Source: a virus (taxonomy: Duplodnaviria > Heunggongvirae > Uroviricota > Caudoviricetes). From it: a stretch of 13,104 nt of DNA. Numbering within the stretch: position 1 is the first letter of the stretch; each line of letters starts with the position of its first letter. The notes beneath the pieces were generated by a model, which ran no database searches, was not told the DNA's origin, and was given only the letters and a program-made list of their open reading frames with translations. Shown here piece after piece: positions 1 through 13,104 of the stretch. Where the stretch lies: positions 1 to 13,104 of the IMG/VR virus record IMGVR_UViG_2703718848_000006; one strand, 5' to 3'. The translations under genes were made by a program, and so were the position numbers.

Positions 1-1
1 C

Positions 2-406
2 ATGCCGGGTAAACACCGCCGCACCCCGCCGTACATGTTCACCGAGGAGGTGGCGCTCGCGGCCATGCGTGCTCACGCTGCCGGTGAGTCTGTGGATACC
101 CGCCTGCTGACGGAGACCCTTGAACTGACCGCCACGGCTGACATGCCTGATGAAGTGCGCGCAAAGCTGCACAAAATCACAGGTCTGTTTCTGCGTGATG
201 GTGGTGATGCCGCAGGTGCGCTGACTCACCTGCAACGTGCGACACAGCTCAACTGTCAGGCAGGTGTCAAAAAAGAGATTGAACGACTGGAGCGGGAGCT
301 GAAACCGAAGCCGGAGCCGCAGCCCAAAGCGGCCACCCGTACCCCACGTAAGAGCCGGAGCGTGACACCGGCAAAACGTGGACGCCCGAAAAAGAAAGCC
401 AGTTAA
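2..406 (+). CDS. M: Terminase small (endonuclease) subunit gpM, C-terminal part; 5' end lies outside the window
   Basis: ORF runs from the window edge to TAA at 404-406. Lys/Arg/Pro-rich tail (...KPKPEPQPKAATRTPRKSRSVTPAKRGRPKKKAS). Sits immediately upstream of the head-completion gene, as in P2 (M-L-X-Y-K). Identification is from recalled similarity and synteny. Confidence 0.75.
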   Translation: MPGKHRRTPPYMFTEEVALAAMRAHAAGESVDTRLLTETLELTATADMPDEVRAKLHKITGLFLRDGGDAAGALTHLQRATQLNCQAGVKKEIERLERELKPKPEPQPKAATRTPRKSRSVTPAKRGRPKKKAS

Positions 407-505
407 CAACCGAATGCGCCCCGCGCCAGGGCGGCACGCCGGTCAGTGAGGGTGAATCACCTGACGCTGTACCGGCGTCCACCGCCCGACTTTTCAGAGG
501 TAGTC

Positions 506-1015
506 ATGATGACGCTGATTATTCCGCGAAAGGAGGCTCCCGTGTCCGGTGAGGGTACGGTGGTTATCCCGCAACCGGCAGGCGACGAGCCGGTGATTAA
601 AAACACGTTCTTTTTTCCCGATATCGACCCGAAGCGCGTCCGGGAACGTATGCGCCTTGAGCAGACCGTCGCCCCCGCCCGTCTGCGTGAGGCCATCAAG
701 TCAGGCATGGCGGAGACGAATGCGGAGCTGTACGAGTACCGCGAACAGAAAATTGCCGCCGGTTTTACGCGTCTGGCGGACGTCCCGGCGGACGACATCG
801 ACGGTGAAAGCATCAAAGTTTTTTACTACGAGCGCGCCGTGTGTGCGATGGCGACAGCGTCACTTTATGAACGTTATCGCGGTGTGGATGCCAGTGCGAA
901 AGGCGACAAAAAGGCCGACAGCATAGACAGCACCATTGATGAGCTGTGGCGGGATATGCGCTGGGCAGTGGCGCGTATCCAGGACAAGCCGCGCTGCATC
1001 GTGAGTCAAATCTGA
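506..1015 (+). CDS. L: Head completion/stabilisation protein gpL
   Basis: Translation MMTLIIPRKEAPVSGEGTVV... matches the P2 gpL N-terminus as I recall it. ATG at 506 is preceded by GAGG at 497-500. The ORF track's GTG at 446 is probably an upstream artefact. Stop TGA 1013-1015 overlaps the next start (ATGA). Confidence 0.85.
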   Translation: MMTLIIPRKEAPVSGEGTVVIPQPAGDEPVIKNTFFFPDIDPKRVRERMRLEQTVAPARLREAIKSGMAETNAELYEYREQKIAAGFTRLADVPADDIDGESIKVFYYERAVCAMATASLYERYRGVDASAKGDKKADSIDSTIDELWRDMRWAVARIQDKPRCIVSQI

Positions 1016-1218
1016 TGAAGACCTTTGCGCTACAGGGCGACACGCTCGACGCCATCTGTGTCCGGTATTACGGGCGCACTGAGGGCGTGGTCGAAGCCGT
1101 GCTCGCCGCAAATCCGGGACTGGCTGAACTGGGCGCGGTGCTGTCGCACGGCACCGCCGTCGAACTGCCCGACGTTCAGACCGCGCCCGTGGCTGAAACT
1201 GTCAATCTGTGGGAGTAA
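1015..1218 (+). CDS. X: Tail protein X (gpX), 67 aa
   Basis: MKTFALQGDTLDAICVRYYGRTEGVV...ETVNLWE. Start overlaps the L stop (ATGA). Position and size match P2 X. Confidence 0.85.
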   Translation: MKTFALQGDTLDAICVRYYGRTEGVVEAVLAANPGLAELGAVLSHGTAVELPDVQTAPVAETVNLWE

Positions 1219-1221
1219 CGC

Positions 1222-1503
1222 ATGACAGCAGAAGAAAAAAGCGTCCTGTCGCTTTTCATGATTGGAGTGCTGATTGTTGTCGGCAAGGTGCTTGCCGGTG
1301 GTGAACCCATCACCCCGCGTCTGTTTATCGGGCGCATGTTGCTCGGTGGTTTTGTCTCGATGGTTGCCGGTGTTGTTCTGGTGCAGTTTCCTGACCTGTC
1401 ACTGCCTGCGGTGTGCGGCATCGGCTCCATGCTGGGTATCGCCGGTTATCAGGTGATTGAGATTGCCATTCAGCGCCGCTTTAAGGGCAGGGGGAAACAG
1501 TAA
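1222..1503 (+). CDS. Y: Holin gpY, 93 aa
   Basis: Small protein with hydrophobic segments (LSLFMIGVLIVVGKVLAGG; VSMVAGVVLVQF; GIGSMLGIAGY) and a charged C-terminus (RRFKGRGKQ). GGGAG RBS at 1211-1215. Directly upstream of the endolysin gene. Confidence 0.85.
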   Translation: MTAEEKSVLSLFMIGVLIVVGKVLAGGEPITPRLFIGRMLLGGFVSMVAGVVLVQFPDLSLPAVCGIGSMLGIAGYQVIEIAIQRRFKGRGKQ

Positions 1504-2000
1504 TGCCGGTAATTAACACGCATCAGAATATCGCCGCCTTTCTCGACATGCTGGCGGTGTCCGAAGGGACGGCAAATCATCCGCTGACGAAAAACCGGGG
1601 CTATGACGTGATAGTCACCGGACTGGACGGGAAGCCGGAAATTTTCACCGACTACAGTGACCACCCGTTCGCGCATGGCCGACCGGCGAAGGTGTTTAAC
1701 CGTCGCGGTGAAAAGTCCACGGCCTCCGGTCGCTATCAGCAGCTTTACCTGTTCTGGCCGCACTACCGCAAACAGCTTGCCCTGCCGGATTTTAGTCCGT
1801 TGTCACAGGACAGACTCGCCATTCAGTTGATCCGCGAACGCGGTGCACTGGATGACATCCGGGCGGGACGCATTGAGCGCGCCATTTCACGCTGTCGCAA
1901 TATCTGGGCGTCCCTGCCGGGTGCCGGTTACGGTCAGCGTGAGCATTCACTGGAAAAACTGGTCACCGTCTGGCGTACCGCTGGCGGCGTACCGGCTTAA
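1503..2000 (+). CDS. K: Endolysin gpK, 165 aa
   Basis: MPVINTHQNIAAFLDMLAVSEGT... resembles the P2 K / phage lysozyme family (EGT catalytic-region motif). TAATG overlap with the Y stop. Holin-endolysin-lysA-spanin order. Confidence 0.9.
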   Translation: MPVINTHQNIAAFLDMLAVSEGTANHPLTKNRGYDVIVTGLDGKPEIFTDYSDHPFAHGRPAKVFNRRGEKSTASGRYQQLYLFWPHYRKQLALPDFSPLSQDRLAIQLIRERGALDDIRAGRIERAISRCRNIWASLPGAGYGQREHSLEKLVTVWRTAGGVPA

Positions 2001-2014
2001 ACGGAGTAAACACC

Positions 2015-2362
2015 ATGAAGAAATTATCCCTTTCACTGATGCTGAACGTGTCGCTGGTGATGATGCTGGCACTGTCCCTGATTTACCCGCAGAGCGTGGC
2101 CGTCAGTTTTGTCGCCACCTGGGCGATTCTGGCGACGGTTATCTGTGTGGTTGCCGGTGGTGTCGGGGTGTATGCCACTGAGTANNNNNNNNNNNNNNNN
2201 NNNNNNNNNNNNNNNNNNNTGATGGTGGCGACGTTTATCTCGCTGGTCGCTGCCGGGTGGATTTTTACTGCGCTGATTTACCTCGTGGCGTCGGTGTTCT
2301 TCCGGCTGATACGTACGGCCTGCCGTCAGCGTTTTGAGGGGCGGGAACCATGTCAAAGCTGA
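2015..2362 (+). CDS. lysA: LysA-like membrane protein (lysis timing), interrupted by a 35-N assembly gap
   Basis: Hydrophobic protein (MKKLSLSLMLNVSLVMMLALSLIYP...; ...MVATFISLVAAGWIFTALIYLVASVFF) between K and lysB. N-run 2185-2219 lies inside the ORF, so true length and frame continuity are unknown. Confidence 0.65.
   Translation: MKKLSLSLMLNVSLVMMLALSLIYPQSVAVSFVATWAILATVICVVAGGVGVYATEXXXXXXXXXXXXXMVATFISLVAAGWIFTALIYLVASVFFRLIRTACRQRFEGREPCQS
2185..2219. other. Assembly gap (35 N) inside lysA
   Basis: Run of N characters. Confidence 0.95.
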
Positions 2363-2793
2363 TGATTGTGCTGGTTGTGTTGTTATCACTGGCGGTGGCG
2401 GGGCTGTTTCTGGTGAAGCATGAAAATGCCAGCCTGCGCACCTCACTGGACAGGGCGAATAACGTCGCCAGTGGACAGCAGACGACCATCACCATGCTGA
2501 AAAATCAGCTTCATGTTGCCCTCACCAGGGCAGACAAAAACGAGCTGGCGCAGGTGGCACTGCGTCAGGAACTGGAGAACGCCGCCAAGCGTGAAGCACA
2601 GCGCGAGAAAACCATCACGAGGTTACTTAATGAAAACGAAGATTTTCGCCGCTGGTACGGCGCTGACCTGCCTGATGCTGTGCGCCGGTTGCACCAGCGC
2701 CCCGCCTGCACCGACGCCAGTGATTGTCCACAACGCCTGCCCGAAAGTGAGTCTTTGCCCGATGCCGGGCAGCGACCCGGAGACGAACGGTGA
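2350..2793 (+). CDS. lysB: LysB, Rz-like inner-membrane spanin (i-spanin)
   Basis: N-terminal TM helix (LMIVLVVLLSLAVAGLFLV) followed by a charged, coiled-coil-like periplasmic region. Overlaps the lysA end and contains lysC in the +1 frame. Confidence 0.8.
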   Translation: MSKLMIVLVVLLSLAVAGLFLVKHENASLRTSLDRANNVASGQQTTITMLKNQLHVALTRADKNELAQVALRQELENAAKREAQREKTITRLLNENEDFRRWYGADLPDAVRRLHQRPACTDASDCPQRLPESESLPDAGQRPGDER

Positions 2794-2920
2794 TTTAAGT
2801 GCCGATATCCGGCAGCTTGAGAACGCGCTGGCACGCTGTGCCAGCCAGGTAAAAATGATTAAACACTGTCAGGACGAAAACGATGCTCAAACCCGACAGC
2901 CTGCGCAGGGCGCTGACTGA
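2630..2920 (+). CDS. lysC: LysC, Rz1-like outer-membrane lipoprotein spanin (o-spanin), embedded out of frame in lysB
   Basis: Internal ATG at 2630 in the 2513-2920 frame gives MKTKIFAAGTALTCLMLCAGCTSAPPAPTP...: a signal peptide, a lipobox-like LCAGC and a Pro-rich mature part, typical of Rz1-type o-spanins. Extends past the lysB stop and overlaps the R start. Confidence 0.7.
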   Translation: MKTKIFAAGTALTCLMLCAGCTSAPPAPTPVIVHNACPKVSLCPMPGSDPETNGDLSADIRQLENALARCASQVKMIKHCQDENDAQTRQPAQGAD

Positions 2921-3350
2921 TGCCGTCACGGTGCTGAAAACAAGCCCCGAGATGCTGCGGATATTCGTGGATAACGGGAGTATTGCCTCCACACTGGCGA
3001 CGTCGCTGTCATTCGAAAAGCGTTACACGCTCAATGTCATTGTGACCGACTTTACCGGTGATTTTGACCTGCTCATTGTGCCGGTGCTGGCGTGGCTGCG
3101 GGAAAATCAGCCCGACATCATGACCACCGACGAAGGCCAGAAAAAGGGCTTCACGTTTTATGCGGACATCAACAATGACAGCAGCTTTGATATCAGTATC
3201 AGCCTGATGCTGACCGAGCGCACGCTGGTCAGTGAGGTTGACGGTGCACTGCATGTGAAGAATATCCCGGAACCTCCGCCGCCGGAGCCGGTCACCCGCC
3301 CGGTGGAGCTTTATATCAATGGCGAACTGGTGAGCAAGTGGGATGAATGA
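2883..3350 (+). CDS. R: Tail completion protein gpR, 155 aa
   Basis: MLKPDSLRRALTDAVTVLKTSPEMLRIFVDNGS... at the P2 R position. Stop TGA 3348-3350 overlaps the S start region. Confidence 0.85.
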   Translation: MLKPDSLRRALTDAVTVLKTSPEMLRIFVDNGSIASTLATSLSFEKRYTLNVIVTDFTGDFDLLIVPVLAWLRENQPDIMTTDEGQKKGFTFYADINNDSSFDISISLMLTERTLVSEVDGALHVKNIPEPPPPEPVTRPVELYINGELVSKWDE

Positions 3351-3795
3351 GTTTAAGCGTTTTGAAGACCGGCTGACCGGACTGATTGAGTCGCTGTCAC
3401 CGTCAGGGCGTCGGCGGCTGAGTGCAGAGCTGGCGAAGCGTCTGCGGCAGAGTCAGCAGCGTCGGGTGATGGCACAGAAAGCCCCGGACGGCACACCCTA
3501 CGCGCCACGCCAGCAGCAGAGCGCCAGAAAAAAGACCGGTCGTGTTAAGCGAAAAATGTTTGCGAAACTTATCACCAGTCGTTTTTTGCATATCCGCGCC
3601 AGCCCGGAACAGGCATCAATGGAATTTTACGGCGGGAAGTCGCCGAAAATCGCCAGTGTGCATCAGTTCGGTCTGTCGGAAGAAACCCGGAAAGACGGTA
3701 AGAAAATTGATTATCCGGCGCGTCCTCTGCTCGGCTTTACCGGTGAGGATGTGCAGATGATTGAAGAGATTATCCTGGCTCACCTTGAGCGTTAG
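3343..3795 (+). CDS. S: Tail completion protein gpS, 150 aa
   Basis: MNEFKRFEDRLTGLIESLSPSGRRRLSAELAKRLRQ... at the P2 S position. ATG at 3343 overlaps the R 3' end. Stop TAG 3793-3795. Confidence 0.85.
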   Translation: MNEFKRFEDRLTGLIESLSPSGRRRLSAELAKRLRQSQQRRVMAQKAPDGTPYAPRQQQSARKKTGRVKRKMFAKLITSRFLHIRASPEQASMEFYGGKSPKIASVHQFGLSEETRKDGKKIDYPARPLLGFTGEDVQMIEEIILAHLER

Positions 3796-3824
3796 TTTTA
3801 TCCAGGCAGAGGCTGATGCGCAAT

Positions 3825-3861
3825 TAAACATTGAGCGGCCATGCTGGTCGCTCAATGTTTA
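3825..3861. terminator. Perfect 13-bp inverted repeat (11-nt loop) between convergent S and the cargo-1 gene; candidate bidirectional terminator or RNA-stability hairpin
   Basis: TAAACATTGAGCG (3825-3837), loop GCCATGCTGGT, CGCTCAATGTTTA (3849-3861). Lies between the S stop (3795) and the minus-strand stop at 3867-3869. No clear U-tract on either strand. Confidence 0.4.
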
Positions 3862-3866
3862 GAGGT

Positions 3867-4652
3867 TTATGAGTGATTTTTATTTGATGCTTTGTATTCT
3901 AAAACCTTCTTATTGGCGTAAAAGAATTTTGTATATGACAGGAATATAACCAGACCTGAAGTGAAATAGACGAGGGATAGTATTAATAATGCTTTTTTGT
4001 GACTGTTATTATCTTTAATCTCCTGGTTTAACCATTCGGAGTCCTCCTCGTTTAGCTGTAAGAGCTTATTGCAGGCGATCTCAGGAAGTGTGTCTTTTAT
4101 AAATACGTTTTGCAGTCTCTTGCAATCGGCAAGGGTATAAGTTTTATTAAATTCAACTGCTTTATTTTTGAAGGATAAAAGAACTTTGTCACTATAAACA
4201 TAGTACATCATGTTTTTATATGGTATGCCTATGGCATCCCTTACTATAACGGATTGTTCGTTGTGTATGTAACATGCGAGGAGAATGTAAAAAATACTGG
4301 CCAGAATTACAATTATTGTTTTAATTATGTGTGGTGGTTTTGTTATGTCACCCCAGATGCGAGTAAGGAAAAAATACGATGTTTTTAGTTTTCCATCAAT
4401 CAGTCCCTGCTGTATCATTCTCACATTTTCAATGCCTGATACATTGATTCCGTTAATTATTTTAAATAGTTGAATGTCGCGCCACTCGCGGTCAAGTCTT
4501 TTTAATTTTTTGTCTGAATATCCAAAATTGAAATAATGTGCAATAAGCCTCATAAGGTTACTTTTACCAAAGCTAAAAAATGCTAATACTGCAAAGCTAC
4601 AAAGGAAAAAAACGATTAGCCCCCACACATTAGTCACATTATAGCTGACCAT
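3867..4652 (-). CDS. Cargo (moron) gene: 261-aa predicted three-TM membrane protein of unknown function at the S-V (P2 orf30) position
   Basis: ORF with AAGGAG RBS 6 nt upstream of the ATG at 4650-4652. AT-rich (about 25% GC on a sampled line versus ~57% in flanking structural genes). Hydrophobic segments at about aa 9-28, 108-129 and 221-240. Opposite strand to all flanking tail genes. No motif I recognise. Confidence 0.7.
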   Translation of the reverse strand: MVSYNVTNVWGLIVFFLCSFAVLAFFSFGKSNLMRLIAHYFNFGYSDKKLKRLDREWRDIQLFKIINGINVSGIENVRMIQQGLIDGKLKTSYFFLTRIWGDITKPPHIIKTIIVILASIFYILLACYIHNEQSVIVRDAIGIPYKNMMYYVYSDKVLLSFKNKAVEFNKTYTLADCKRLQNVFIKDTLPEIACNKLLQLNEEDSEWLNQEIKDNNSHKKALLILSLVYFTSGLVIFLSYTKFFYANKKVLEYKASNKNHS

Positions 4653-4735
4653 TACGCTCTCCTTGAATGTTGTCTGGTAGTTCTACAAATGAATCCAGAT
4701 AGCATAACTTTTATATATTGTGCAATCTCACATGC

Positions 4736-5349
4736 ATGAACACTCTCGCAAATATTCAGGAACTCGCGCGCGCACTGCGCAACATGATTCGCACCGGCAT
4801 TATCGTCGANNCCGCGTGCAGACCGGCGGCATGTGCACCGACTGGCTTCAGTGGCTGACCCATCGCGCAGGACGTTCGCGCACATGGTGGGCACCTTCCG
4901 TGGGGGAACAGGTGCTGATTCTGTCCGTGGGCGGTGAACTCGACACGGCATTCGTTCTGCCGGGGATTTATTCCGGCGATAACCCCGCGCCGTCTGCGTC
5001 GGCGGATGCCCTGCATATCCGTTTCCCTGACGGGGCGGTGATTGAGTATGAACCCGAAACCAGTGCACTTACGGTAAGCGGAATTAAAACGGCCAGCGTG
5101 ACGGCTTCTGATTCTGTTACTGCCACGGTGCCGGTGGTCATGGTGAAAGCATCAACCCGCGTCACCCTGGACACACCGGAGGTGGTCTGCACCAACAGGC
5201 TGATTACCGGCACGCTGGAAGTGCAGAAGGGCGGGACGATGCGCGGCAACATTGAACACACCGGCGGTGAACTCTCATCAAACGGTAAGGTACTGCATAC
5301 CCATAAACACCCCGGCGACAGCGGCGGCACAACCGGGGGACCTCTATGA
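4736..5349 (+). CDS. V: Baseplate spike/assembly protein gpV; 5' region interrupted by a 2-N gap
   Basis: ATG at 4736 gives MNTLANIQELARALRNMIRTGIIV, then NN at 4810-4811, after which the reading continues in another frame as RVQTGGMCTDWLQWLTHRAGRSRTWWAPSVGEQ...GDSGGTTGGPL. Both parts match P2 gpV as I recall it. The frame break coincides exactly with the gap, so it is an assembly artefact. Confidence 0.85.
4810..4811. other. Assembly gap (NN) inside gene V
   Basis: Two N characters; the reading frame of V changes across them. Confidence 0.95.
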
Positions 5350-5693
5350 CTGCGCGTTATCTCGGAATGAATCGCAGTGATGGCCTGACTGTCACTGACC
5401 TTGAGCATATTAGCCAGAGTATCGGCGATATCCTGCGCACACCGGTCGGCTCGCGGGTGATGCGTCGTGATTACGGCTCGTTGCTGGCGTCAATGATTGA
5501 CCAGCCGCAGACTCCGGCGCTTGAGTTGCAGATTAAGGTCGCCTGTTACATGGCGGTGCTGAAATGGGAACCCCGCGTCACCCTGTCATCCGTCACCACG
5601 GCGCGCAGCTTTGACGGTCGAATGACAGTTACGTTAACCGGCCAGCATAACGACACCGGCCAGCCACTTTCGTTAACCATCCCTGTGAGTTGA
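5346..5693 (+). CDS. W: Baseplate wedge protein gpW (T4 gp25-like), 115 aa
   Basis: MTARYLGMNRSDGLTVTDLEHISQSIGDILRTPVGSRVMRRDYGSLL... is the GPW/gp25 family signature. ATGA overlap with the V stop. Confidence 0.9.
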   Translation: MTARYLGMNRSDGLTVTDLEHISQSIGDILRTPVGSRVMRRDYGSLLASMIDQPQTPALELQIKVACYMAVLKWEPRVTLSSVTTARSFDGRMTVTLTGQHNDTGQPLSLTIPVS

Positions 5694-5697
5694 AACC

Positions 5698-6606
5698 ATG
5701 CCGATTATCGACCTGAACCAGCTACCCGCACCGGATGTGGTCGAGGAGCTGGACTTTGAAACCATTCTCGCTGAACGCAAGGCGACACTGATTTCCCTTT
5801 ACCCGGAAGACCAGCAGGAGGCGGTCGCCCGTACCCTGACACTGGAATCTGAGCCTCTCGTCAAACTGCTGGAGGAAAATGCTTATCGTGAGCTTATCTG
5901 GCGTCAGCGTGTGAATGAGGCTGCACGGGCGGTAATGCTGGCCTGTGCCGCCGGTAATGACCTTGATGTGATTGGTGCCAATTACAACACCACGCGCCTG
6001 ACTATCACCCCGGCAGATGATTCGACTATCCCGCCGACACCGGCAGTGATGGAATCTGACACCGATTATCGTCTGCGTATTCAGCAGGCTTTTGAGGGCT
6101 TAAGCGTCGCCGGGTCAGTGGGAGCCTATCAGTATCATGGTCGCAGTGCTGACGGGCGTGTCGCGGATATTTCTGTCACCAGTCCGTCTCCTGCCTGTGT
6201 CACCATCTCTGTGCTGTCACGTGAAAATAACGGCGTCGCATCCGAAGACCTGCTGGCTGTGGTGCGTAACGCCCTTAATGGCGAGGACGTCAGGCCGGTG
6301 GCCGACCGCGTGACCGTGCAGTCTGCCGCCATCGTTGAATACCAGATAAACGCCACGCTTTACCTTTACCCTGGTCCCGAAAGCGAACCCATCCGCGCTG
6401 CCGCTGTGAAAAAGCTGGAAGCGTATATCACGGCACAGCACCGGCTGGGGCGCGACATCCGTCTGTCTGCCATTTATGCCGCTTTGCATGTGGAAGGTGT
6501 GCAGCGTGTCGAACTGGCTGCACCACTGGCCGACATCGTGCTCAACAGTACGCAGGCGTCTTTCTGTACCGAATACCGCGTCGTGACCGGAGGCTCGGAT
6601 GAGTGA
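5698..6606 (+). CDS. J: Baseplate assembly protein gpJ, 302 aa
   Basis: MPIIDLNQLPAPDVVEELDFETILAERKATLISLYPEDQQ... Position after W and before I. The 3' end overlaps the I start. Confidence 0.9.
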   Translation: MPIIDLNQLPAPDVVEELDFETILAERKATLISLYPEDQQEAVARTLTLESEPLVKLLEENAYRELIWRQRVNEAARAVMLACAAGNDLDVIGANYNTTRLTITPADDSTIPPTPAVMESDTDYRLRIQQAFEGLSVAGSVGAYQYHGRSADGRVADISVTSPSPACVTISVLSRENNGVASEDLLAVVRNALNGEDVRPVADRVTVQSAAIVEYQINATLYLYPGPESEPIRAAAVKKLEAYITAQHRLGRDIRLSAIYAALHVEGVQRVELAAPLADIVLNSTQASFCTEYRVVTGGSDE

Positions 6607-7129
6607 TTCGCGACTGCTGCCGACCGGCTCATCACCGCTTGAGGTCGCCGCCGCAAAAGCCTGTGCGGAAATTGAAAAAACGCCGGTCAGTATTCGTGAG
6701 CTGTGGAACCCGGACACCTGTCCGGCAAATCTGCTGCCGTGGCTGGCGTGGGCGTTTTCGGTCGACAGGTGGGATGAAAAGTGGCCGGAAGCGACAAAAC
6801 GCGCCGTTATCCGCGATGCCCATTTCATCCACTGTCATAAGGGCACTATAGGTGCAATCCGGCGTGTGGTGGAGCCGCTCGGCTATCTCATCAACGTGAC
6901 GGAGTGGTGGGAAAACAGTGACCCGCCCGGCACCTTCCGGCTTGATATTGGTGTACTGGAAAGCGGTATCACAGAGGCAATGTATCAGGAAATTGAACGG
7001 CTGATTGCTGATGCCAAACCTGCAAGCCGCCACCTTATTGGCCTGAACATTACCCGGGACATTCCCGGATACCTGTTCGCCGGTGGTGTGGCTTACGACG
7101 GCGATGTAATTACGGTTTACCCCGGATAA
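6599..7129 (+). CDS. I: Baseplate/tail protein gpI, 176 aa
   Basis: MSDSRLLPTGSSPLEVAAAKACAEIEKTPVSIRELWNPDTCPANLLPWLAWAFSVDRWDE... ATG at 6599 overlaps the J 3' end. Confidence 0.9.
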   Translation: MSDSRLLPTGSSPLEVAAAKACAEIEKTPVSIRELWNPDTCPANLLPWLAWAFSVDRWDEKWPEATKRAVIRDAHFIHCHKGTIGAIRRVVEPLGYLINVTEWWENSDPPGTFRLDIGVLESGITEAMYQEIERLIADAKPASRHLIGLNITRDIPGYLFAGGVAYDGDVITVYPG

Positions 7130-7139
7130 GTGAGGAATA

Positions 7140-9350
7140 ATGAGCACAAAATTCAGAACCGTTATCACCACTGCCGGTGCAGCAAAGCTGGCAGCGGCAA
7201 CCGCACCGGGAGGGCGGAAGGTCAACATTACCACTATGGCCGTCGGGGATGGCGGTGGTAAATTGCCTGTCCCGGATGCCGGACAGACCGGGCTTATCCA
7301 TGAAGTCTGGCGACATGCGCTGAACAAAATCAGCCAGGACAAACGAAACAGTAATTATATTATCGCAGAGCTGGTTATTCCGCCGGAGGTGGGCGGTTTC
7401 TGGATGCGTGAGCTTGGCCTGTACGATGATGCGGGAACGTTAATTGCCGTGGCGAACATGGCCGAAAGTTATAAGCCAGCTCTTGCCGAAGGCTCAGGGC
7501 GTTCGCAGACCTGCCGCATGGTCATCATCGTCAGCAGTGTGGCCTCAGTGGAGCTGACCATTGACACCACAACGGTGATGGCGACGCAGGATTACGTTGA
7601 TGACAAAATTGCAGAGCATGAACAGTCACGACGTCACCCTGACGCCTCGCTGACCGCAAAAGGTTTTACTCAGTTAAGCAGTGCGACCAACAGCACGTCT
7701 GAAACACTGGCTGCAACGCCGAAAGCGGTAAAGACCGCCTATGACCTTGCTAACGGGAAATATACTGCACAGGACGCCACCACCGCGCGAAAAGGCCTTG
7801 TTCAGCTCAGTAGTGCGACTAACAGCACGTCTGAAACGCTCGCCGCAACGCCAAAAGCGGTAAAAGCAGCATATGACCTGGCTAACGGGAAATATACCGC
7901 ACAGGACGCCACCACCGCGCGAAAAGGGCTTGTCCAGCTAAGTAGCGTCACCAACAGCGATTCTGAAACGCTTGCGGCAACGCCAAAGGCGGTTAAGACA
8001 GCGTATGACCTTGCTAACGGGAAATACACTGCACAGGATGCCACCACAGCGCGAAAAGGTCTTGTCCAGCTCAGTAGCGCCACCAACAGCGATTATGAAA
8101 CGCTTGCGGCAACACCAAAAGCGGTGAAGTCTGCCTATGACAATGCTGAAAAACGTCTTCAGAAAGATCAGAACGGTGCGGATATTCCGGGAAAAGATAC
8201 TTTCACGAAAAATATCGGTGCCTGTCGTGCTTATAGCGGCGCTTTGAGCACTGAAGCCGGAAACTGGACAACCGCACAATTGATTGAATGGCTAGAGTCT
8301 CAAGGGGCATTCAATCACCCATACTGGATGTGCAAATGTTCATGGTCATACGGCAATAATAAAATTATTACCGATACTGGCTGTGGAACTATTCATCTTG
8401 CAGGTTGCGTTATTGAGGTTATGGGTAATAAAGCAGCAATGACCATTCGTGTGACCACTCCGAGTACATCAAGCGGTGGTGGTACCACCAGTGCGCAATT
8501 CACGTATATCAATCACGGAGCTGATTATGCGCCGGGCTGGCGACGTGACTACAATACGAAAAATAAGCAACCGGCTTTTGCATTAGGGAAAACAGGAAAT
8601 ACGGTTGCAAATAATAAAGCGGTAGGATGGAACTGGGACAGTGGTGCTTATTGTGCACAGGATGGCGGAGCATCAAAAATGGTGCTGCATTTTTACACGG
8701 GTGAGGGAAGTTGTCCGGCAATGCAGTTTCTTGTGGATTATAAAAACAGGGGGATTTTTTACAGGTCGGCACGTGATGGGTATGGATTTGAGGCTGACTG
8801 GTCTGAGTTTTATACAACATCACGAAAGCCAACACCTGCGGATATTCTTGCTCTGGCATTATCAGGCGGAAGCATGTCAGGCAGCATAAAATTTATCAAT
8901 GATGCCTTCCTGATTTGGGAAAGAAATACTGACTGGGCGAAGATTGGTTTTAAAAATGATGCCGACAGCGACACTGATTCATACATGTGGTTTGAAACAG
9001 GCGACAACGGCAATGAATATTTCAAATGGAGAAGCAAACAAAGCACCACAACAAAAGACCTGATGAATCTTAAGTCTGATGCACTACGGGTTACCGGGCA
9101 GGTGATACCATCAAATTTCAGCAATTTTGACTCCCGCTATGTCCGGGATATCCGGCTTGGTGGTGCCGCCACATACAAACCTGCGAACAATGGCATGACA
9201 TGGACGCATCAGGCTCCGTCAGGTTGCGTATATACCGGCATTATTGTTCAGGATACCGGCTCAAACTCTGCCGATAACATTGGTGGCGTATATTACAGAC
9301 CGGTGCAGAAATACATTAACGGGACATGGTATAACGTGGCGCAGGTATAA
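7140..9350 (+). CDS. H: Tail fibre protein gpH, 736 aa: conserved N-terminal baseplate-attachment domain, internal tandem repeats, divergent C-terminal receptor-binding region
   Basis: GAGG RBS at 7132-7135. N-terminus MSTKFRTVITTAGAAKLAAATAPGGRKVNITTMAVGDGGGKLPVPDAGQTGLIHEVWRHALNKISQDKRNSNYIIAELVIPPEVGGFWMRELGLYDDAG matches the P2 H N-terminal domain as I recall it. Followed by about 3.7 copies of a 44-aa repeat and a lower-GC C-terminal part. Confidence 0.9.
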   Translation: MSTKFRTVITTAGAAKLAAATAPGGRKVNITTMAVGDGGGKLPVPDAGQTGLIHEVWRHALNKISQDKRNSNYIIAELVIPPEVGGFWMRELGLYDDAGTLIAVANMAESYKPALAEGSGRSQTCRMVIIVSSVASVELTIDTTTVMATQDYVDDKIAEHEQSRRHPDASLTAKGFTQLSSATNSTSETLAATPKAVKTAYDLANGKYTAQDATTARKGLVQLSSATNSTSETLAATPKAVKAAYDLANGKYTAQDATTARKGLVQLSSVTNSDSETLAATPKAVKTAYDLANGKYTAQDATTARKGLVQLSSATNSDYETLAATPKAVKSAYDNAEKRLQKDQNGADIPGKDTFTKNIGACRAYSGALSTEAGNWTTAQLIEWLESQGAFNHPYWMCKCSWSYGNNKIITDTGCGTIHLAGCVIEVMGNKAAMTIRVTTPSTSSGGGTTSAQFTYINHGADYAPGWRRDYNTKNKQPAFALGKTGNTVANNKAVGWNWDSGAYCAQDGGASKMVLHFYTGEGSCPAMQFLVDYKNRGIFYRSARDGYGFEADWSEFYTTSRKPTPADILALALSGGSMSGSIKFINDAFLIWERNTDWAKIGFKNDADSDTDSYMWFETGDNGNEYFKWRSKQSTTTKDLMNLKSDALRVTGQVIPSNFSNFDSRYVRDIRLGGAATYKPANNGMTWTHQAPSGCVYTGIIVQDTGSNSADNIGGVYYRPVQKYINGTWYNVAQV
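7659..8144 (+). repeat. In-frame tandem repeat, 132-nt (44-aa) period, about 3.7 copies, inside tail fibre gene H
   Basis: Copies begin at 7659, 7791, 7923 and 8055 (partial). Unit K-G-[FL]-[TV]-QLSS-[AV]-TNS-[TD]-SETLAATPKAVK-x-AYDLANGKYTAQDATTAR, with synonymous and near-synonymous nucleotide differences between copies. Confidence 0.9.
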
Positions 9351-9353
9351 TTT

Positions 9354-9853
9354 ATGCAGCATTTAAAAAATNNCAATATCAATTGACAAAGAATTTTGAT
9401 GTTGTCTGGTTTTTTTCAGAAGATGGTAAGAACTGGTACGAAGAACAAAAGTATTTTGCTGATGACACGATAAAAATAGCGTACGACAAAGATAATATCA
9501 TCCGCTATGTGGAAAAGGATGTGACAGCTATCAGACCGGATGGATTAAGTGTTGTTGAAGTGGCGGATATTACTGCTAACCGACGGGCGGACATTTCAGG
9601 GAACTGGATGTTTAAGGATGGCACAGTGATCAAACGAATTTATACGGCAGAGGAATTGCAACAGCAGGCAGAAAACAGGAAAGCCAGACTTCTTGCAGAT
9701 GCTGAATCAGTCATCCAGCCGCTGGAACGCGCTGTCAGGCTGAATATGGCAACAGACGAGGAACGCACACGACTGGAAGCATGGGAACGCTACAGTGTTC
9801 TGGTCAGCCGTGTGGATCCTGCAAATCCTGAATGGCCGGAAATGCCGCAATAA
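9354..9853 (+). CDS. G: Tail fibre assembly protein (gpG/Tfa-like chaperone); 5' end interrupted by a 2-N gap
   Basis: ATG at 9354 (MQHLKN), then NN at 9372-9373, after which the long frame continues as [20 protein letters not shown]...[47 protein letters not shown]. This C-terminal region is the conserved Tfa chaperone domain. The track's TTG at 9383 is probably not the true start. Confidence 0.75.
9372..9373. other. Assembly gap (NN) at the 5' end of the tail fibre assembly gene
   Basis: Two N characters; frame break between the MQHLKN start and the downstream ORF. Confidence 0.95.
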
Positions 9854-10087
9854 CTTGTATGAGCTCTAGTGTGAGCTTACATATCTATGGCACAGAGTAA
9901 AGCCTAATCTGACAGTCCGCTCTGTGCCAGAAGCGGACATTGCGGCGTTACGGCACGTTAGGTCAGATATTTAAATGCACATGGTCCGCTTGTGGCGGAA
10001 GGATACTTACAAGAGTTGGTGAGAGATAGTAAAATCAATATGAAAATTAAAATTCGGCAATAATTCCTGATATAGTCATCTTAATGA

Positions 10088-10122
10088 ACATAAAAACTAT
10101 CACAATAGGATAGTTTTTATGT
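10088..10122. terminator. Perfect 14-bp AT-rich inverted repeat (7-nt loop) just 3' of the cargo-2 operon; candidate bidirectional terminator
   Basis: ACATAAAAACTATC (10088-10101), loop ACAATAG, GATAGTTTTTATGT (10109-10122). Lies 13 nt beyond the stop (10135-10137) of the last minus-strand gene. T-rich on both strands, but only 3 of 14 stem pairs are GC. Confidence 0.4.
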
Positions 10123-10134
10123 CATACTTGTTAG

Positions 10135-10830
10135 TTAATCACTTAAGGAATGAAGTGAGGCTCGTTGTGCAGAGGTTAAGCTAAGGAGGATTTTTTCTCG
10201 ATACTCAGGTGCAAAGGAAAAGAAAACATCAGGAAAAATTCTTATGATAGTTGATATCATAGTCTTAACCACCTTATCAATCACCTTCGAAATATTATCT
10301 ATTTTAACCAAGTCTATTTCGGGAAAAACATTTAAAGCTTTTATGTGAGCCATTTCTTTTACAGTAGCTGTATGTACGTGACTGCATAACGAAGAGTATT
10401 CAGCTTTTAAAGTTTCATGTAGTAGAGGATTTTTTTTGAAGACAGGATGTTCCCCAGTTTGTTCAATTACCTTAAACAATGATTTTTCTTCAAGTATTGA
10501 AGGATCTAGTAAGCAACCGATTGATTTTAAAGAATTTTCAATATAACTTCGCATCATTAGATTTGCTGGTTTGTATGCACCATTTATAACCATAAACATA
10601 GCTGTACCAAGGTCAGATGAAGCTTCTTGCAATCGCTCCAATGAGTTGGCGTCTATTTTCTCCTTGGAGAAATGATACAAACAGTAAACAAGGCACATAA
10701 AAGAATAATATCTCTTATGTATCATGCTTATTTTCCCTCTTGAGTTAATATTCTCGAAAACATTTTTTAATTTATATTCAGAGAAATAAGTAACTAACTC
10801 AGTGAAATCGCTGTTTACTTCTCTCGACAT
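10135..10830 (-). CDS. Cargo-2 gene 3: hypothetical protein, 231 aa
   Basis: ATG at 10828-10830 with AAGGA RBS about 6 nt upstream. Only 2 nt separate it from the stop of the upstream gene. AT-rich. No catalytic or structural motif I can recognise. Confidence 0.65.
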   Translation of the reverse strand: MSREVNSDFTELVTYFSEYKLKNVFENINSRGKISMIHKRYYSFMCLVYCLYHFSKEKIDANSLERLQEASSDLGTAMFMVINGAYKPANLMMRSYIENSLKSIGCLLDPSILEEKSLFKVIEQTGEHPVFKKNPLLHETLKAEYSSLCSHVHTATVKEMAHIKALNVFPEIDLVKIDNISKVIDKVVKTMISTIIRIFPDVFFSFAPEYREKILLSLTSAQRASLHSLSD

Positions 10831-10832
10831 TG

Positions 10833-11339
10833 TTAGTCCTTATTGAATATATCTTTTATAACTTCATTCCAGTCATATATCTCATTTTGAGCGCTAGAAA
10901 GGTTCTTCCTCTCTTTTATTCTACTCAAAACTAGAGGGTTATTTGACATTGAATTGATAATATTATAAGCCTTACCTAAATCGGATGAGTTTTTCTCGTG
11001 AACGTCACACACGATTATGCCGATCATTTCCTCTCTAGATCTTTTTTCAGGCCTGCTGATTTCGATACCTAACATGCGTGCAAAATCATCTATATCTTTA
11101 TTTTTTTGGAAGAGATCTTTGTCTAATAAAATCCTCGGAAGATACCCAACAAGGAAACCTTTAATATCATTTTTTTTAGACTTTGAATTTCTTTCGTTAA
11201 CTTCTAAATTATCAGTATAACTATCTTGAAGTAATTCAATAAAGTTGATTCTTGATAATTTTTTTGAAATAAAGGAAAACTCCTCTAAAAAGTTTAACAG
11301 TTGCTTAATTTCTTTTGAGTTATTTTTTTTGTCAGTCAT
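10833..11339 (-). CDS. Cargo-2 gene 2: hypothetical protein, 168 aa, Lys/Glu/Asn-rich
   Basis: ATG at 11337-11339 overlaps the TGA of the ParA-like gene (ATGA overlap, translational coupling). No recognisable motif. Confidence 0.65.
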   Translation of the reverse strand: MTDKKNNSKEIKQLLNFLEEFSFISKKLSRINFIELLQDSYTDNLEVNERNSKSKKNDIKGFLVGYLPRILLDKDLFQKNKDIDDFARMLGIEISRPEKRSREEMIGIIVCDVHEKNSSDLGKAYNIINSMSNNPLVLSRIKERKNLSSAQNEIYDWNEVIKDIFNKD

Positions 11340-12166
11340 AAGTCACCTACTCTAGAGAGAAGTTCGTCAGTAATTTTAGACAGCGAAAACTTCATATCCT
11401 CATCAGTTAAATTGTTAATAAATAAGCCTCTTGTTTGATTTCTTGCCAACTCAGTACGTTTGCTCAAATATGATTTAAAGATCTTATTACGCCAACGTTT
11501 TTGATTATTGAAGTAACGAAGACTTTCCTCATATAAATTACTATTACCTTCAACCATATTAAAAACTATGCCCGCACATTCAATCTTAAGATCGAAATTT
11601 TCTCTCTTCTCATTTATAATGCTATCTAATAGATCGATACCAGTGATCGAAAGAGGATCGGGTTTGGCTGGAATGAGGTAATAATCAGATGCAATTAATG
11701 CGCTGGACATCCAAACTGATGGGGTTGGTGGGGTATCAATTATGACATAATCATAGTCATTTTCATGGATTTTAAGAAAGCGTCTAAGCTTGTTTTCTAT
11801 CCCTTCTCCTGGTTTCATTTCAATTTTATATAGCCCAAGGCTTCCGGGAACAATGTGAAAATTATCATTTAATTGAATTGGTGTTATATCGGCTAATTCT
11901 TTAGGTGTGTTAACTAAAGGACCAGTCATTGTAGATAGTCGAATTTTTGAACTATAAAAAATATCACATATGCTATCGCCTCCGCTTTTCATATGTGCAA
12001 CATATTTGCTTGTATCCATTACACATTGCGTTGCGTTAAATTGTGGGTCGATATCTATTAATAATATTTTTTGCCCAAGTTTATCTGAAAGATGATTAGC
12101 AATATTGGTAGCCAATGTTGACTTACCAACGCCACCTTTCATATTGATTAAGCTAATAACTTTCAA
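11336..12166 (-). CDS. Cargo-2 gene 1: ParA/MinD/Soj-family deviant Walker-A ATPase, 276 aa
   Basis: N-terminus (M/L)KVISLINMKGGVGKSTLATNIANHL carries the deviant Walker A motif KGGxxK[ST]. LLIDIDPQFNAT and the Walker B-like YDYVIIDTPP are also typical ParA motifs. Probable TTG start at 12164-12166 with AGGAG SD 8 nt upstream; an alternative ATG start lies at Met9. Confidence 0.85.
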   Translation of the reverse strand: MKVISLINMKGGVGKSTLATNIANHLSDKLGQKILLIDIDPQFNATQCVMDTSKYVAHMKSGGDSICDIFYSSKIRLSTMTGPLVNTPKELADITPIQLNDNFHIVPGSLGLYKIEMKPGEGIENKLRRFLKIHENDYDYVIIDTPPTPSVWMSSALIASDYYLIPAKPDPLSITGIDLLDSIINEKRENFDLKIECAGIVFNMVEGNSNLYEESLRYFNNQKRWRNKIFKSYLSKRTELARNQTRGLFINNLTDEDMKFSLSKITDELLSRVGDL

Positions 12167-12180
12167 TCTTCTTGCTCCTG

Positions 12181-12199
12181 TTTTGATTAACGCTAAGCT
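12181..12199. repeat. Direct repeat copy B (TTTTGATTAACGCTAAGCT), immediately upstream of the ParA-like gene RBS
   Basis: Matches 12394-12413 (ATTTTGATTAACACTTAAGCT) at 19/20 positions with one indel. The two copies are about 213 bp apart and bracket the AT-rich presumed promoter region. Confidence 0.6.
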
Positions 12200-12393
12200 T
12201 TTTCATCAGCATTGAAATTTAACATGTGTTTTACAAACTTATGTCTTATCACTACCTTATCATTTTTTACATACACCATAAATATTTTTAACTAAAAATT
12301 TTTGGTTTTCAACCTGAAATCTTTATCTTTAAAAACAAAACATTACAATATTTTTAGTAAGATGCCTTACCTAATGTAATGTGAATGGCTCAA

Positions 12394-12413
12394 TTTTGAT
12401 TAACACTTAAGCT
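12394..12413. repeat. Direct repeat copy C, at the distal edge of the AT-rich cargo-2 upstream region
   Basis: See copy B. A weaker related motif (TTAATCACTTAAG, 10135-10147) overlaps the stop codon at the other end of the operon. Confidence 0.55.
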
Positions 12414-12767
12414 ATGTTAATAATGGTTTTGTAAGTGTGATGAGGGTTCCATATGAAGAAGTGATTTCCCGAACAATACAACATGAATATCATCCTCGTA
12501 GTCGGTGTTTCTTCACATGAACTCTGTCGCAAATACGCTATATGAAACGTGGCAAGATGAATGTACCTGAGGTTATCAATCTTAAACCGCTTGAGAGTAC
12601 GCCCTGATCCTGCCCGTTGATAAACTAACTGCATTGTTTGTAATGCTTCATCGGTGGTGAGAACAAGTTTCGTACTTCCGCTTCTCGCTCAAAGCAGACT
12701 GTCAGATTTGATAGCGTTTTGGCTATGTAAGTTGCCAGTTGGGAAATGAGTGAGTACAAATCAGGAC

Positions 12768-12795
12768 AGGCGGGCGAATTGCCCGCCTTTTCTTT
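12768..12795 (+). terminator. Rho-independent terminator-like hairpin on the + strand, upstream of the FI promoter region
   Basis: GC-rich stem GGCGGGC (12769-12775), loop GAATT, GCCCGCC (12781-12787), followed by TTTTCTTT (12788-12795). Confidence 0.55.
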
Positions 12796-12798
12796 ATC

Positions 12799-12866
12799 TG
12801 TTGTTTCATCCACTGACCAGCCAGGTCAAATAGCGTCTCATGCACTGCCCAACAGAAAATAGTTGC
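12799..12866 (+). promoter_or_regulatory. Candidate late promoter P_F for the sheath operon (Ogr/activator-dependent type)
   Basis: TGTTGT at 12799-12804 with a partial TGT-N12-(c)CA dyad centred near 12811. Perfect inverted repeat TGACC-N5-GGTCA at 12814-12828. Weak -10-like GAAAAT at 12855-12860. GGAG RBS at 12880-12883 before the FI ATG at 12892. P2 late promoters are known to carry an upstream dyad element, but this is a partial match only. Confidence 0.4.
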
Positions 12867-12891
12867 ACCCATTAACCACGGAGTTAAACGG

Positions 12892-13104
12892 ATGAGTGAC
12901 TATCATCACGGCGTGCAGGTGCTGGAGATTAACGACGGCGCCCGCGTCATTTCCACTGTATCCACTGCCATTGTCGGCATGGTCTGCACGGCCAGCGATG
13001 CGGATGCGGAAACCTTCCCCCTCAATAAACCGGTGCTGATTACCAATGTGCAAAGCGCAATTGCAAAGGCCGGTAAAAAAGGCACGCTGGCGGCATCGTT
13101 GCAG
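12892..13104 (+). CDS. FI: Tail sheath protein gpFI, N-terminal part; continues beyond the window
   Basis: ATG at 12892 preceded by GGAG. Translation [71 protein letters not shown] matches the P2 FI N-terminus as I recall it. Open to the window end. Confidence 0.85.

Follow-up and report, generated by a model that had tools for sequence, protein, structure and literature searches.

The 13,104-nucleotide (nt) virus record IMGVR_UViG_2703718848_000006 of IMG/VR (positions 1 to 13,104; "the window" below means this whole stretch) is the late region of an Escherichia coli P2-like prophage, and among its tail genes lies a minus-strand operon of three genes, here called A, B and C. Analysis of this operon revealed that C encodes a divergent protein of the HEPN fold, whose relation to DUF5677 lies below the Pfam threshold, and that it is inherited in a fixed order with A, a ParA-type ATPase, and B, a small protein of a family of its own. 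Most likely, the trio is a candidate conflict system that has not been described before and in which a nucleoside triphosphatase (NTPase) would control a HEPN protein, an extension of the ParA/Soj-HEPN dyads that were predicted in 2013. The operon and its flanking elements are:

Leader/promoter region: 12167-12676, minus strand; non-coding, ∼510 nt, upstream of ParA, AT-rich beside the gene
Gene A: 11336-12166, minus strand; ParA/MinD-type deviant Walker-A ATPase of 276 amino acids (aa), TTG start with AGGAG before it
Gene B: 10833-11339, minus strand; 168 aa, ATG start
Gene C: 10135-10830, minus strand; 231 aa, ATG start
Hairpin: 10088-10122, minus strand; perfect 14-bp stem, AT-rich, 13 nt after the C stop

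The start of B and the stop of ParA share a 4-nt ATGA overlap, and C starts 2 nt past the stop of B with an AAGGA Shine-Dalgarno sequence upstream. An earlier reading made from the letters alone (the sequence-only reading) had noted the two smaller open reading frames (ORFs) and their coupling to ParA, and its coordinates match exactly. The leader is matched over its full length solely in the 133 E. coli genomes with the cassette, and therefore travels with it; a search of the leader region in Rfam returned no matches. Promoter-like hexamers are present in the cassette region, yet not above shuffled expectation. Terminator-like sites number four against a shuffled mean of 1.5 and include the hairpin after C, which is kept 3' of C in Enterobacter sp. 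J49 (L006, 8704-8744, 90% identity), where the proteins are only ∼72% identical; this hairpin is probably the operon terminator.

B and C are real genes. In a word-indexed search C and B had only 18 and 12 clusters, respectively. Profile searches showed large families, with 374 clusters of 160-180 aa for B and, at E≤1e-3, 390 cluster representatives for C, which have 230-245 aa almost without exception; 110 of the latter reach E≤1e-30. Of 5426 complete E. coli genomes, 133 (∼2.5%) carry the cassette at 99.6-99.8% identity, and no copy in the genomes listed has a pseudogene annotation. It is also present in five IMG/VR contigs, and none of the deposited phage genomes that were searched for the E. 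coli cassette carries it.

C is a divergent HEPN-fold protein

Neither C nor B gave a match at E≤1 beyond noise in Pfam, NCBIfam or PADLOC, or any match in a sequence-profile search of the PDB, and neither has a canonical catalytic motif, in agreement with the sequence-only reading; PHROGs places C solely in a family of unknown function. Composition and Kyte-Doolittle values also agree with its description of B as highly charged, of C as holding several Cys and His, and of both as lacking transmembrane (TM) helices: B is 45% K/R/E/D/N with an isoelectric point of 7.7, C has 4 Cys and 8 His, and the highest-scoring 19-residue segments (0.78 in B, 1.28 in C) leave no TM-grade stretch in either protein.

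The fold of C is a HEPN-like up-down α-helical bundle with extra N- and C-terminal helices. When 120 diverse relatives of C were compared with Pfam, 41 gave weak matches to DUF5677 (PF18928) and six matched HEPN PF05168 (best E 9.5e-5); the C protein of the window itself matched neither model. The family consensus matched DUF5677 with 25.1 bits (E 2.1e-5), which is below the 27.1-bit gathering cut-off, and the alignment places residues 85-187 onto profile positions 21-108. Comparison of the C profile by hhalign with a single DUF4145 (HEPN) domain, taken from locus L009, gave an uninformative probability of 0.2%. The sequence evidence (the sub-threshold DUF5677 and HEPN matches) agrees with the fold, and we assign C to the HEPN fold. 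The sequence-only reading had guessed at a cryptic effector fold in the 231-aa protein, and the HEPN-like bundle and the sub-threshold matches of the relatives of C bear this out; the fold search that this reading had proposed gave this HEPN-like result for C and no fold relative for B.

The description of C as motif-less did not survive alignment, as the family has a sharp signature, R94-x3-E98-x3-[K/R]102 on one helix and Y145-x2-L-[C/S/N]149-x3-H153 on another. In the 120 sequences G84, R94, E98, Y145 and H153 are invariant, E69, S72, D73, Y86, K87, L148, C149 and P170 are conserved in at least 90%, and position 102 is occupied by K (82 sequences) or R (37 sequences). C diverges down to 20% identity across loci, and in an alignment reaching 12% identity only R94 and H153 remained invariant, with E98 nearly so and position 149 occupied by C, S or N. 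The E98-x3-[K/R]102 element matches the upstream acidic E-x3-[K/R] hallmark of HEPN proteins, which Anantharaman et al. (PMC3710099) describe as the second HEPN hallmark; the same authors accept HEPN families in which the Arg or His is relocated in the sequence, AF0298 being named. C probably has a non-canonical active or ligand site, and may be a ribonuclease (RNase).

Two candidates for a canonical HEPN motif were rejected. The sole R-x(4-6)-H string in the C protein of the window is R31..H38, in which R31 is not conserved. Among distant C relatives a canonical Rx6H is found in L050 (TRDLNATVH) and is missing in its sister L056.

ParA, B and C are inherited as a unit

In all 13 retrieved contexts of B or C relatives the order and strand ParA-B-C are kept, usually with overlapping junctions, and the sizes are 272-286 aa for ParA, 153-179 aa for B and 230-248 aa for C. 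The order with overlapping junctions holds down to ∼20-25% identity. The contexts include:

P2-like prophage of the window: the G/FI hotspot
Lambdoid prophage: flanked by replication gene P and by RusA/Q
Enterobacter: chromosomal island
Metagenomic contigs: one with a Y1 transposase adjoining
Aminobacter: adjoining type I HsdR
Metagenomic chromosome: adjoining a D12 methylase and a ParB_N protein
Flavivirga: trio present
Paenibacillus apiarius: directly after a Dcm/Vsr/EcoRII-type restriction-modification (R-M) system, among transposases
Mucilaginibacter: adjoining N6_Mtase and PDDEXK_4 genes
Contig with a RES toxin gene: trio downstream of the RES gene

A larger sample was obtained by a scan with a ParA alignment, which gave 80 loci (one genome per species) that were then searched with local hidden Markov models (HMMs) of B and C; a scan of the genome collection with the C alignment (A1) gave no match. 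Where ParA was close (E<1e-100) and enough downstream DNA was present, C was found in 17/17 loci; B was detected by its HMM in 15 of these, and in the remaining two the B slot is filled by an ORF of 147 or 150 aa. Co-occurrence with the ATPase across genomes, which the sequence-only reading had proposed as a check, held in the 13 contexts and in the 17 loci with a close ParA. The trio is spread over Proteobacteria, Bacteroidota, Firmicutes and others, its hosts including Hippea, Calidifontibacillus, Pontibacter, Flavobacterium, Arenimonas, Burkholderiales and Paenibacillus as well as Melainabacteria, Oscillospiraceae, Caenispirillum, Methylobacterium, Denitromonas and Blautia.

At the more distant ParA loci C was still detectable in 21/61, a metagenome-assembled genome (MAG) of Nanoarchaeota included, and most of the others have a 160-185-aa B-like gene with the motif layout of B. 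Because most of the distant ParA loci that lack C keep a B-like gene, the ParA + B pair is broader than the trio, and a larger family of ParA + B-like dyads may exist. Distant loci of this kind are L050, L056, L057, L064, L068, L073, L076-L077, L080-L086, L090-L094 and L101, with hosts in cyanobacteria, Acidobacteriota, Chloroflexota, Planctomycetota and archaeal MAGs, and ParA there almost always has a B-like gene after it; the shared layout comprises an N-terminal helix, LP.L..IR.FA...GL, SR and a C-terminal GW..I[IL], and the third gene is different or not recognisable. The idea that the third gene is a variable, swapped effector at these loci was dropped as unproven, since Pfam matches of ten such third genes were inconsistent (helicase, glycosyltransferase, MCP) and the genes are probably mere neighbours.

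The trio is nearly absent from plasmids. Among the 72,556 plasmids of PLSDB, C was found on one true plasmid, the other match being a 4.8-Mb record. The plasmid is p11184 (L021, NZ_AJ249644.1, 3664-5734), a 5.8-kb mobilisable Plesiomonas plasmid with the arrangement rep-ParA-B-C plus RelE/RelB. Its ParA is in two pieces (3661-4209 and 4249-4479) and may be frameshifted or mis-sequenced.

The ATPase and its putative small partner

The ATPase has the Walker A motif MKGGVGKST and the clade-specific motifs DPQFNATQC and IIDTPPTPSxWM. It matches AAA_31 (1.4e-37) and CbiA (1.4e-18) in Pfam and the ParA-like family of PHROGs (5.7e-60), with partial matches in NCBIfam; among solved structures the delta protein of pSM19035 is nearest to it (2oze, 3.3e-21). 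In PADLOC-DB v2.0.0 its only match is at the P-loop level (PDC-M28B, 3.8e-5). ParA is the most conserved component of the trio: trio ParAs from different phyla are 42-89% identical, and NMKGGVxK[ST]T (Walker A), DxDPQFN[ASC]TQ and IIDTPPTPSxWM are invariant among them.

B is an all-helical protein for which a fold search of BFVD found no relative. Its conserved motifs are FLEEFSW in a Lys-rich N-terminal helix, a central block (L63-G65-L67-P68...D73..F77..N80.D82...F86), EKRSRxExIG (98-107) and W157-N158..I161, and this layout is kept at distant loci at identities down to 27%. ParB (helix-turn-helix, HTH) and ParG/omega (ribbon-helix-helix, RHH) similarity was not found in B, and neither B nor C is recognisable as a ParB/ParG-like partition adaptor, homology that would have counted against the sequence-only reading. 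ParB, ParG, MinE and McdB are partner proteins of their ParA/MinD-type ATPases; B resembles them in its size, its fixed slot behind ParA and its co-inheritance, and is plausibly an adaptor that partners ParA. The sequence-only reading had offered nucleic-acid binding or an adaptor role for B; nucleic-acid binding is unsupported, and the adaptor role is made plausible solely by where the gene lies and by its co-inheritance.

The B homologue of Flavivirga spongiicola (P0235, 161 aa, L018 6001-6486) is labelled 'Apea-like HEPN domain-containing protein' in UniRef. As neither Pfam nor the fold search backs a HEPN domain in B, this name is probably an artefact of cluster naming.

A proposed conflict system

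We give about an even chance to the trio being a conflict system, i.e. anti-phage abortive infection or toxin-antitoxin-like, that is horizontally mobile as P2-prophage cargo (a moron). This reading is supported by (i) its position in cargo hotspots of two unrelated prophage types, (ii) its repeated adjacency to R-M and toxin genes, (iii) its patchy spread over many phyla, (iv) the HEPN fold of C and the invariant Arg, Glu and His in it, (v) strict co-inheritance, the invariant catalytic motifs of ParA and the near-absence from plasmids, and (vi) the precedent of ParA/Soj-HEPN dyads that were predicted to be toxin-antitoxin systems (PMC3710099). We infer from these features a defence or toxin function, an RNase activity of C, an adaptor role of B and a regulatory or sensory role of ParA. 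In such a system C would be the effector, probably a metal-independent RNase with a site formed by R94/E98/K102 and, on the neighbouring helix, C149/H153 (with Y145). ParA would be an ATP-dependent dimerisation switch, probably bound to the nucleoid, that restrains the effector or senses infection, and B would be the ParA partner, an analogue of ParB, MinE or McdB that physically links C to ParA.

A more specific proposal, which we regard as doubtful, is that the trio is an immune system in which a nucleoid-binding positioning ATPase of the ParA type serves as both sensor and safety catch. ParA-ATP on host DNA would, via B, sequester the non-canonical HEPN RNase C; a phage that perturbs the nucleoid, ATP or ParA itself would then free C, leading to abortive infection. 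The ParA + B-like dyads in other phyla would, on this proposal, be a family of such switches.

Several points weigh against a conflict system. The canonical Rx4-6H motif is not found in the C family, there being no conserved R 5-7 residues before any conserved H in the 120 relatives, and HEPN folds without Rx4-6H can be non-catalytic binding domains (PMC3710099). The nearest solved relatives of the ATPase are true partition ATPases, and p11184 carries the trio directly after the rep gene. The adjacency to defence genes is a qualitative sample: when the neighbours of the 80 loci were searched, crudely, by phmmer with a few R-M proteins as queries, methylases turned up in only five loci and a Y1 transposase in one. 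B and C had no matches in PADLOC-DB v2.0.0, and the 120 C relatives gave scattered noise only; because no PADLOC model matches, the defence label comes from context alone.

Alternative explanations

The alternative that survives best, although we think it unlikely, is that the trio acts purely as an addiction or toxin-antitoxin module by which mobile elements are stabilised, with C as a HEPN toxin, ParA (with B) as its antitoxin and no dedicated antiviral sensing. This is what was predicted in 2013 for ParA/Soj-MAE_18760 HEPN dyads (Anantharaman et al., PMC3710099), and it fits both the tight coupling of the genes and their location, which is always on mobile or island DNA (prophages, the small plasmid bearing RelE/RelB, the locus beside a RES toxin). 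However, addiction modules thrive on plasmids, where the trio is nearly absent (1/72,556), whereas phage cargo hotspots and R-M neighbours are typical of defence. In addition, a two-part pair leaves the strictly conserved third gene, B, unexplained. Toxin-antitoxin and abortive-infection roles are compatible with each other and not mutually exclusive.

It is considerably less probable that the trio is a type Ib-like partition system, with ParA as the motor, B as a novel centromere-binding adaptor and C as an accessory protein, by which the prophage or island persists as an episome. The ATPase is a bona fide member of the ParA family, closest to pSM19035 delta, Soj and ParF, B sits in the ParB slot, and p11184 has the trio next to rep. 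Rousset et al. also note that a quarter of P2-like phages have putative partition systems (PMC9122126), although these are in the A-Q hotspot, not at the G/FI site occupied by the trio, and are mentioned without analysis. Against partition, the single true plasmid with C contrasts with 133/5426 E. coli chromosomes and with chromosomal loci in many phyla, B has no ParB or RHH similarity, and the third gene is HEPN-like. Positions 9850-12900 of the window are also without repeat arrays, holding only two-copy repeats at chance level, though small or degenerate sites could escape such a search.

ParA/MinD ATPases with small partners position many non-DNA cargos, e.g. in the McdAB system, and ParA and B might likewise position C as a non-catalytic HEPN-like nucleotide or RNA binder that regulates lysogeny or superinfection exclusion and does not kill as an effector. 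The pairing of a ParA/MinD ATPase with a small partner is of this known type, C lacks the canonical Rx4-6H, and the ParA + B-like dyads with another or no third gene suggest that A and B are a core machine. However, the conservation of R94, E98 and H153 in very distant relatives resembles that of an active site and not a scaffold, the neighbourhoods are of the defence and mobile-element type, and lysogeny-control genes are not linked to the trio. We consider this explanation as improbable as partition. Finally, it is hardly credible that the ORFs are unexpressed or decaying functionless cargo: promoter-like sites do not exceed chance and the AT-rich island could be silenced, but lengths, order and overlaps are kept across phyla at 20-70% identity together with invariant residues, the Shine-Dalgarno sequences are intact, and the cassette is near-identical in the 133 genomes that carry it, those listed being free of pseudogene annotations.

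Relation to known systems

The closest precedent for a conflict system of this composition is the ParA/Soj-like ATPase paired with a MAE_18760-family HEPN protein, a dyad predicted to be a toxin-antitoxin system by Anantharaman et al. 2013 (PMC3710099). As in those dyads, the trio combines a ParA/Soj-type ATPase and a stand-alone HEPN-fold gene in one operon in mobile or conflict contexts, and the proposed logic is the same, i.e. an NTPase controls a HEPN toxin. The trio differs in having an extra conserved gene of ∼170 aa between ParA and C, and C lacks the Rx4-6H that the MAE_18760 family conserves. Among the 107 Pfam families matched by the 120 C relatives, the 25 most frequent include no HEPN_MAE model, and in NCBIfam no family recurred, none being matched by more than two members.

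With respect to the position of its conserved residues, C can be compared with HEPN variants that have relocated catalytic residues (AF0298/2hsb-type HEPN-T, AbiV and Parep1/8). In C, R94 lies ∼59 residues before H153 and on a different helix, an invariant Tyr lies 8 residues before the His, and the protein is 231 aa long with extra N- and C-terminal helices. DUF5677, the best relative of C at the sequence level, has no known function and so adds no mechanism, although it has been flagged as enriched near defence-associated recombinases (PMC12632615). The type VII MNT-HEPN systems (HepT/MntA) differ in that the trio has no minimal nucleotidyltransferase and has a ParA ATPase and a putative adaptor instead, and in that the canonical RNase motif is missing in C. 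The trio resembles type Ib partition systems (ParF-ParG of TP228, delta-omega of pSM19035) in that a small deviant-Walker-A ParA shares its operon with a small partner gene just downstream; it differs in that B is not an RHH or HTH protein, centromere repeats were not found, a third, HEPN-like gene is present and the distribution is chromosomal and prophage-borne.

We found no description of the trio in full texts or in the DefensePredictor and domain-centric discovery papers and their supplements, a search with subscription journals and the current DefenseFinder outside its scope, and no model of the trio in PADLOC v2 or NCBIfam. Its unusual features would be the ParA motor, the dedicated novel adaptor family and the relocated HEPN site. 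To our knowledge, ParA/MinD positioning motors are not known as a core immune component, and an anti-phage role of the trio would mean that such motors have been recruited to immunity. Should the trio prove to be an anti-phage or toxin system, it would be a widespread defence module, with >370 protein clusters per partner in many phyla. It would offer a testable HEPN fold with the conserved Arg and His on separate helices, and would turn a twelve-year-old in silico prediction for ParA/Soj-HEPN dyads into a tractable ∼2.6-kb E. coli system. It would also caution that a 'ParA family protein' in a prophage hotspot need not have a partition function.

Prophage setting of the cassette

The sequence-only reading, although accurate on the genes themselves, was incomplete in that it contained neither the P2 cargo hotspot nor the occurrence of the trio beside R-M and toxin genes in several phyla. 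The interval between G and FI holds a 2.7-kb island of 30-35% guanine-plus-cytosine (GC) content in a backbone of 55-58% GC, and the island has one operon, ParA-B-C. The site is the P2 'Z/fun' or TO cargo position, and P2 tail genes harbour a hotspot of accessory and defence genes (PMC13586616). The surrounding features of the window are:

Lysis, tail and baseplate genes (V, W, J, I): plus strand, with tail-fibre gene H at 7140-9350 and tail-fibre assembly gene G at 9383-9853
Left arm of inverted repeat: 9906-9937, 32 nt, 88% complementary to 12677-12708; bounds the cargo island
Right arm of inverted repeat: 12677-12708, 32 nt; bounds the cargo island
Start of sheath gene FI: near 12888

From ∼12675 onward the sequence is common to P2 prophages without the cassette. 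Records of P2 relatives (P2-EC TO-region AJ512683 and AJ512685) annotate equivalent left and right inverted repeats with other cargo inside. A 28-nt piece of the right arm recurs at 5699-5726 of L006 (Enterobacter sp. J49), where ParA lies ∼940 nt downstream, a hint that the inverted repeat moves together with the cargo.

A second insertion of low GC content (∼36%) is present on the minus strand at 3867-4652, between P2 genes S (3343-3795) and V (4720-5349) in the orf30 slot, and holds a 261-aa ORF without matches in Pfam or PADLOC. It is missing from the related prophage L001 and may be another uncharacterised cargo gene; a 138-aa ORF that overlaps it (4652-5068) is probably spurious. The short H-G intergenic spacer contains two undetermined bases ('nn') at 9372-9373. 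The tail-fibre protein H has four tandem repeats of ∼45 aa (TAQDATTARKGLVQLSSATNS.SETLAATPKAVK.AYDLANGKY), and in strain S19-141, whose prophage is otherwise near-identical, H has an internal stop and a pseudogene annotation.

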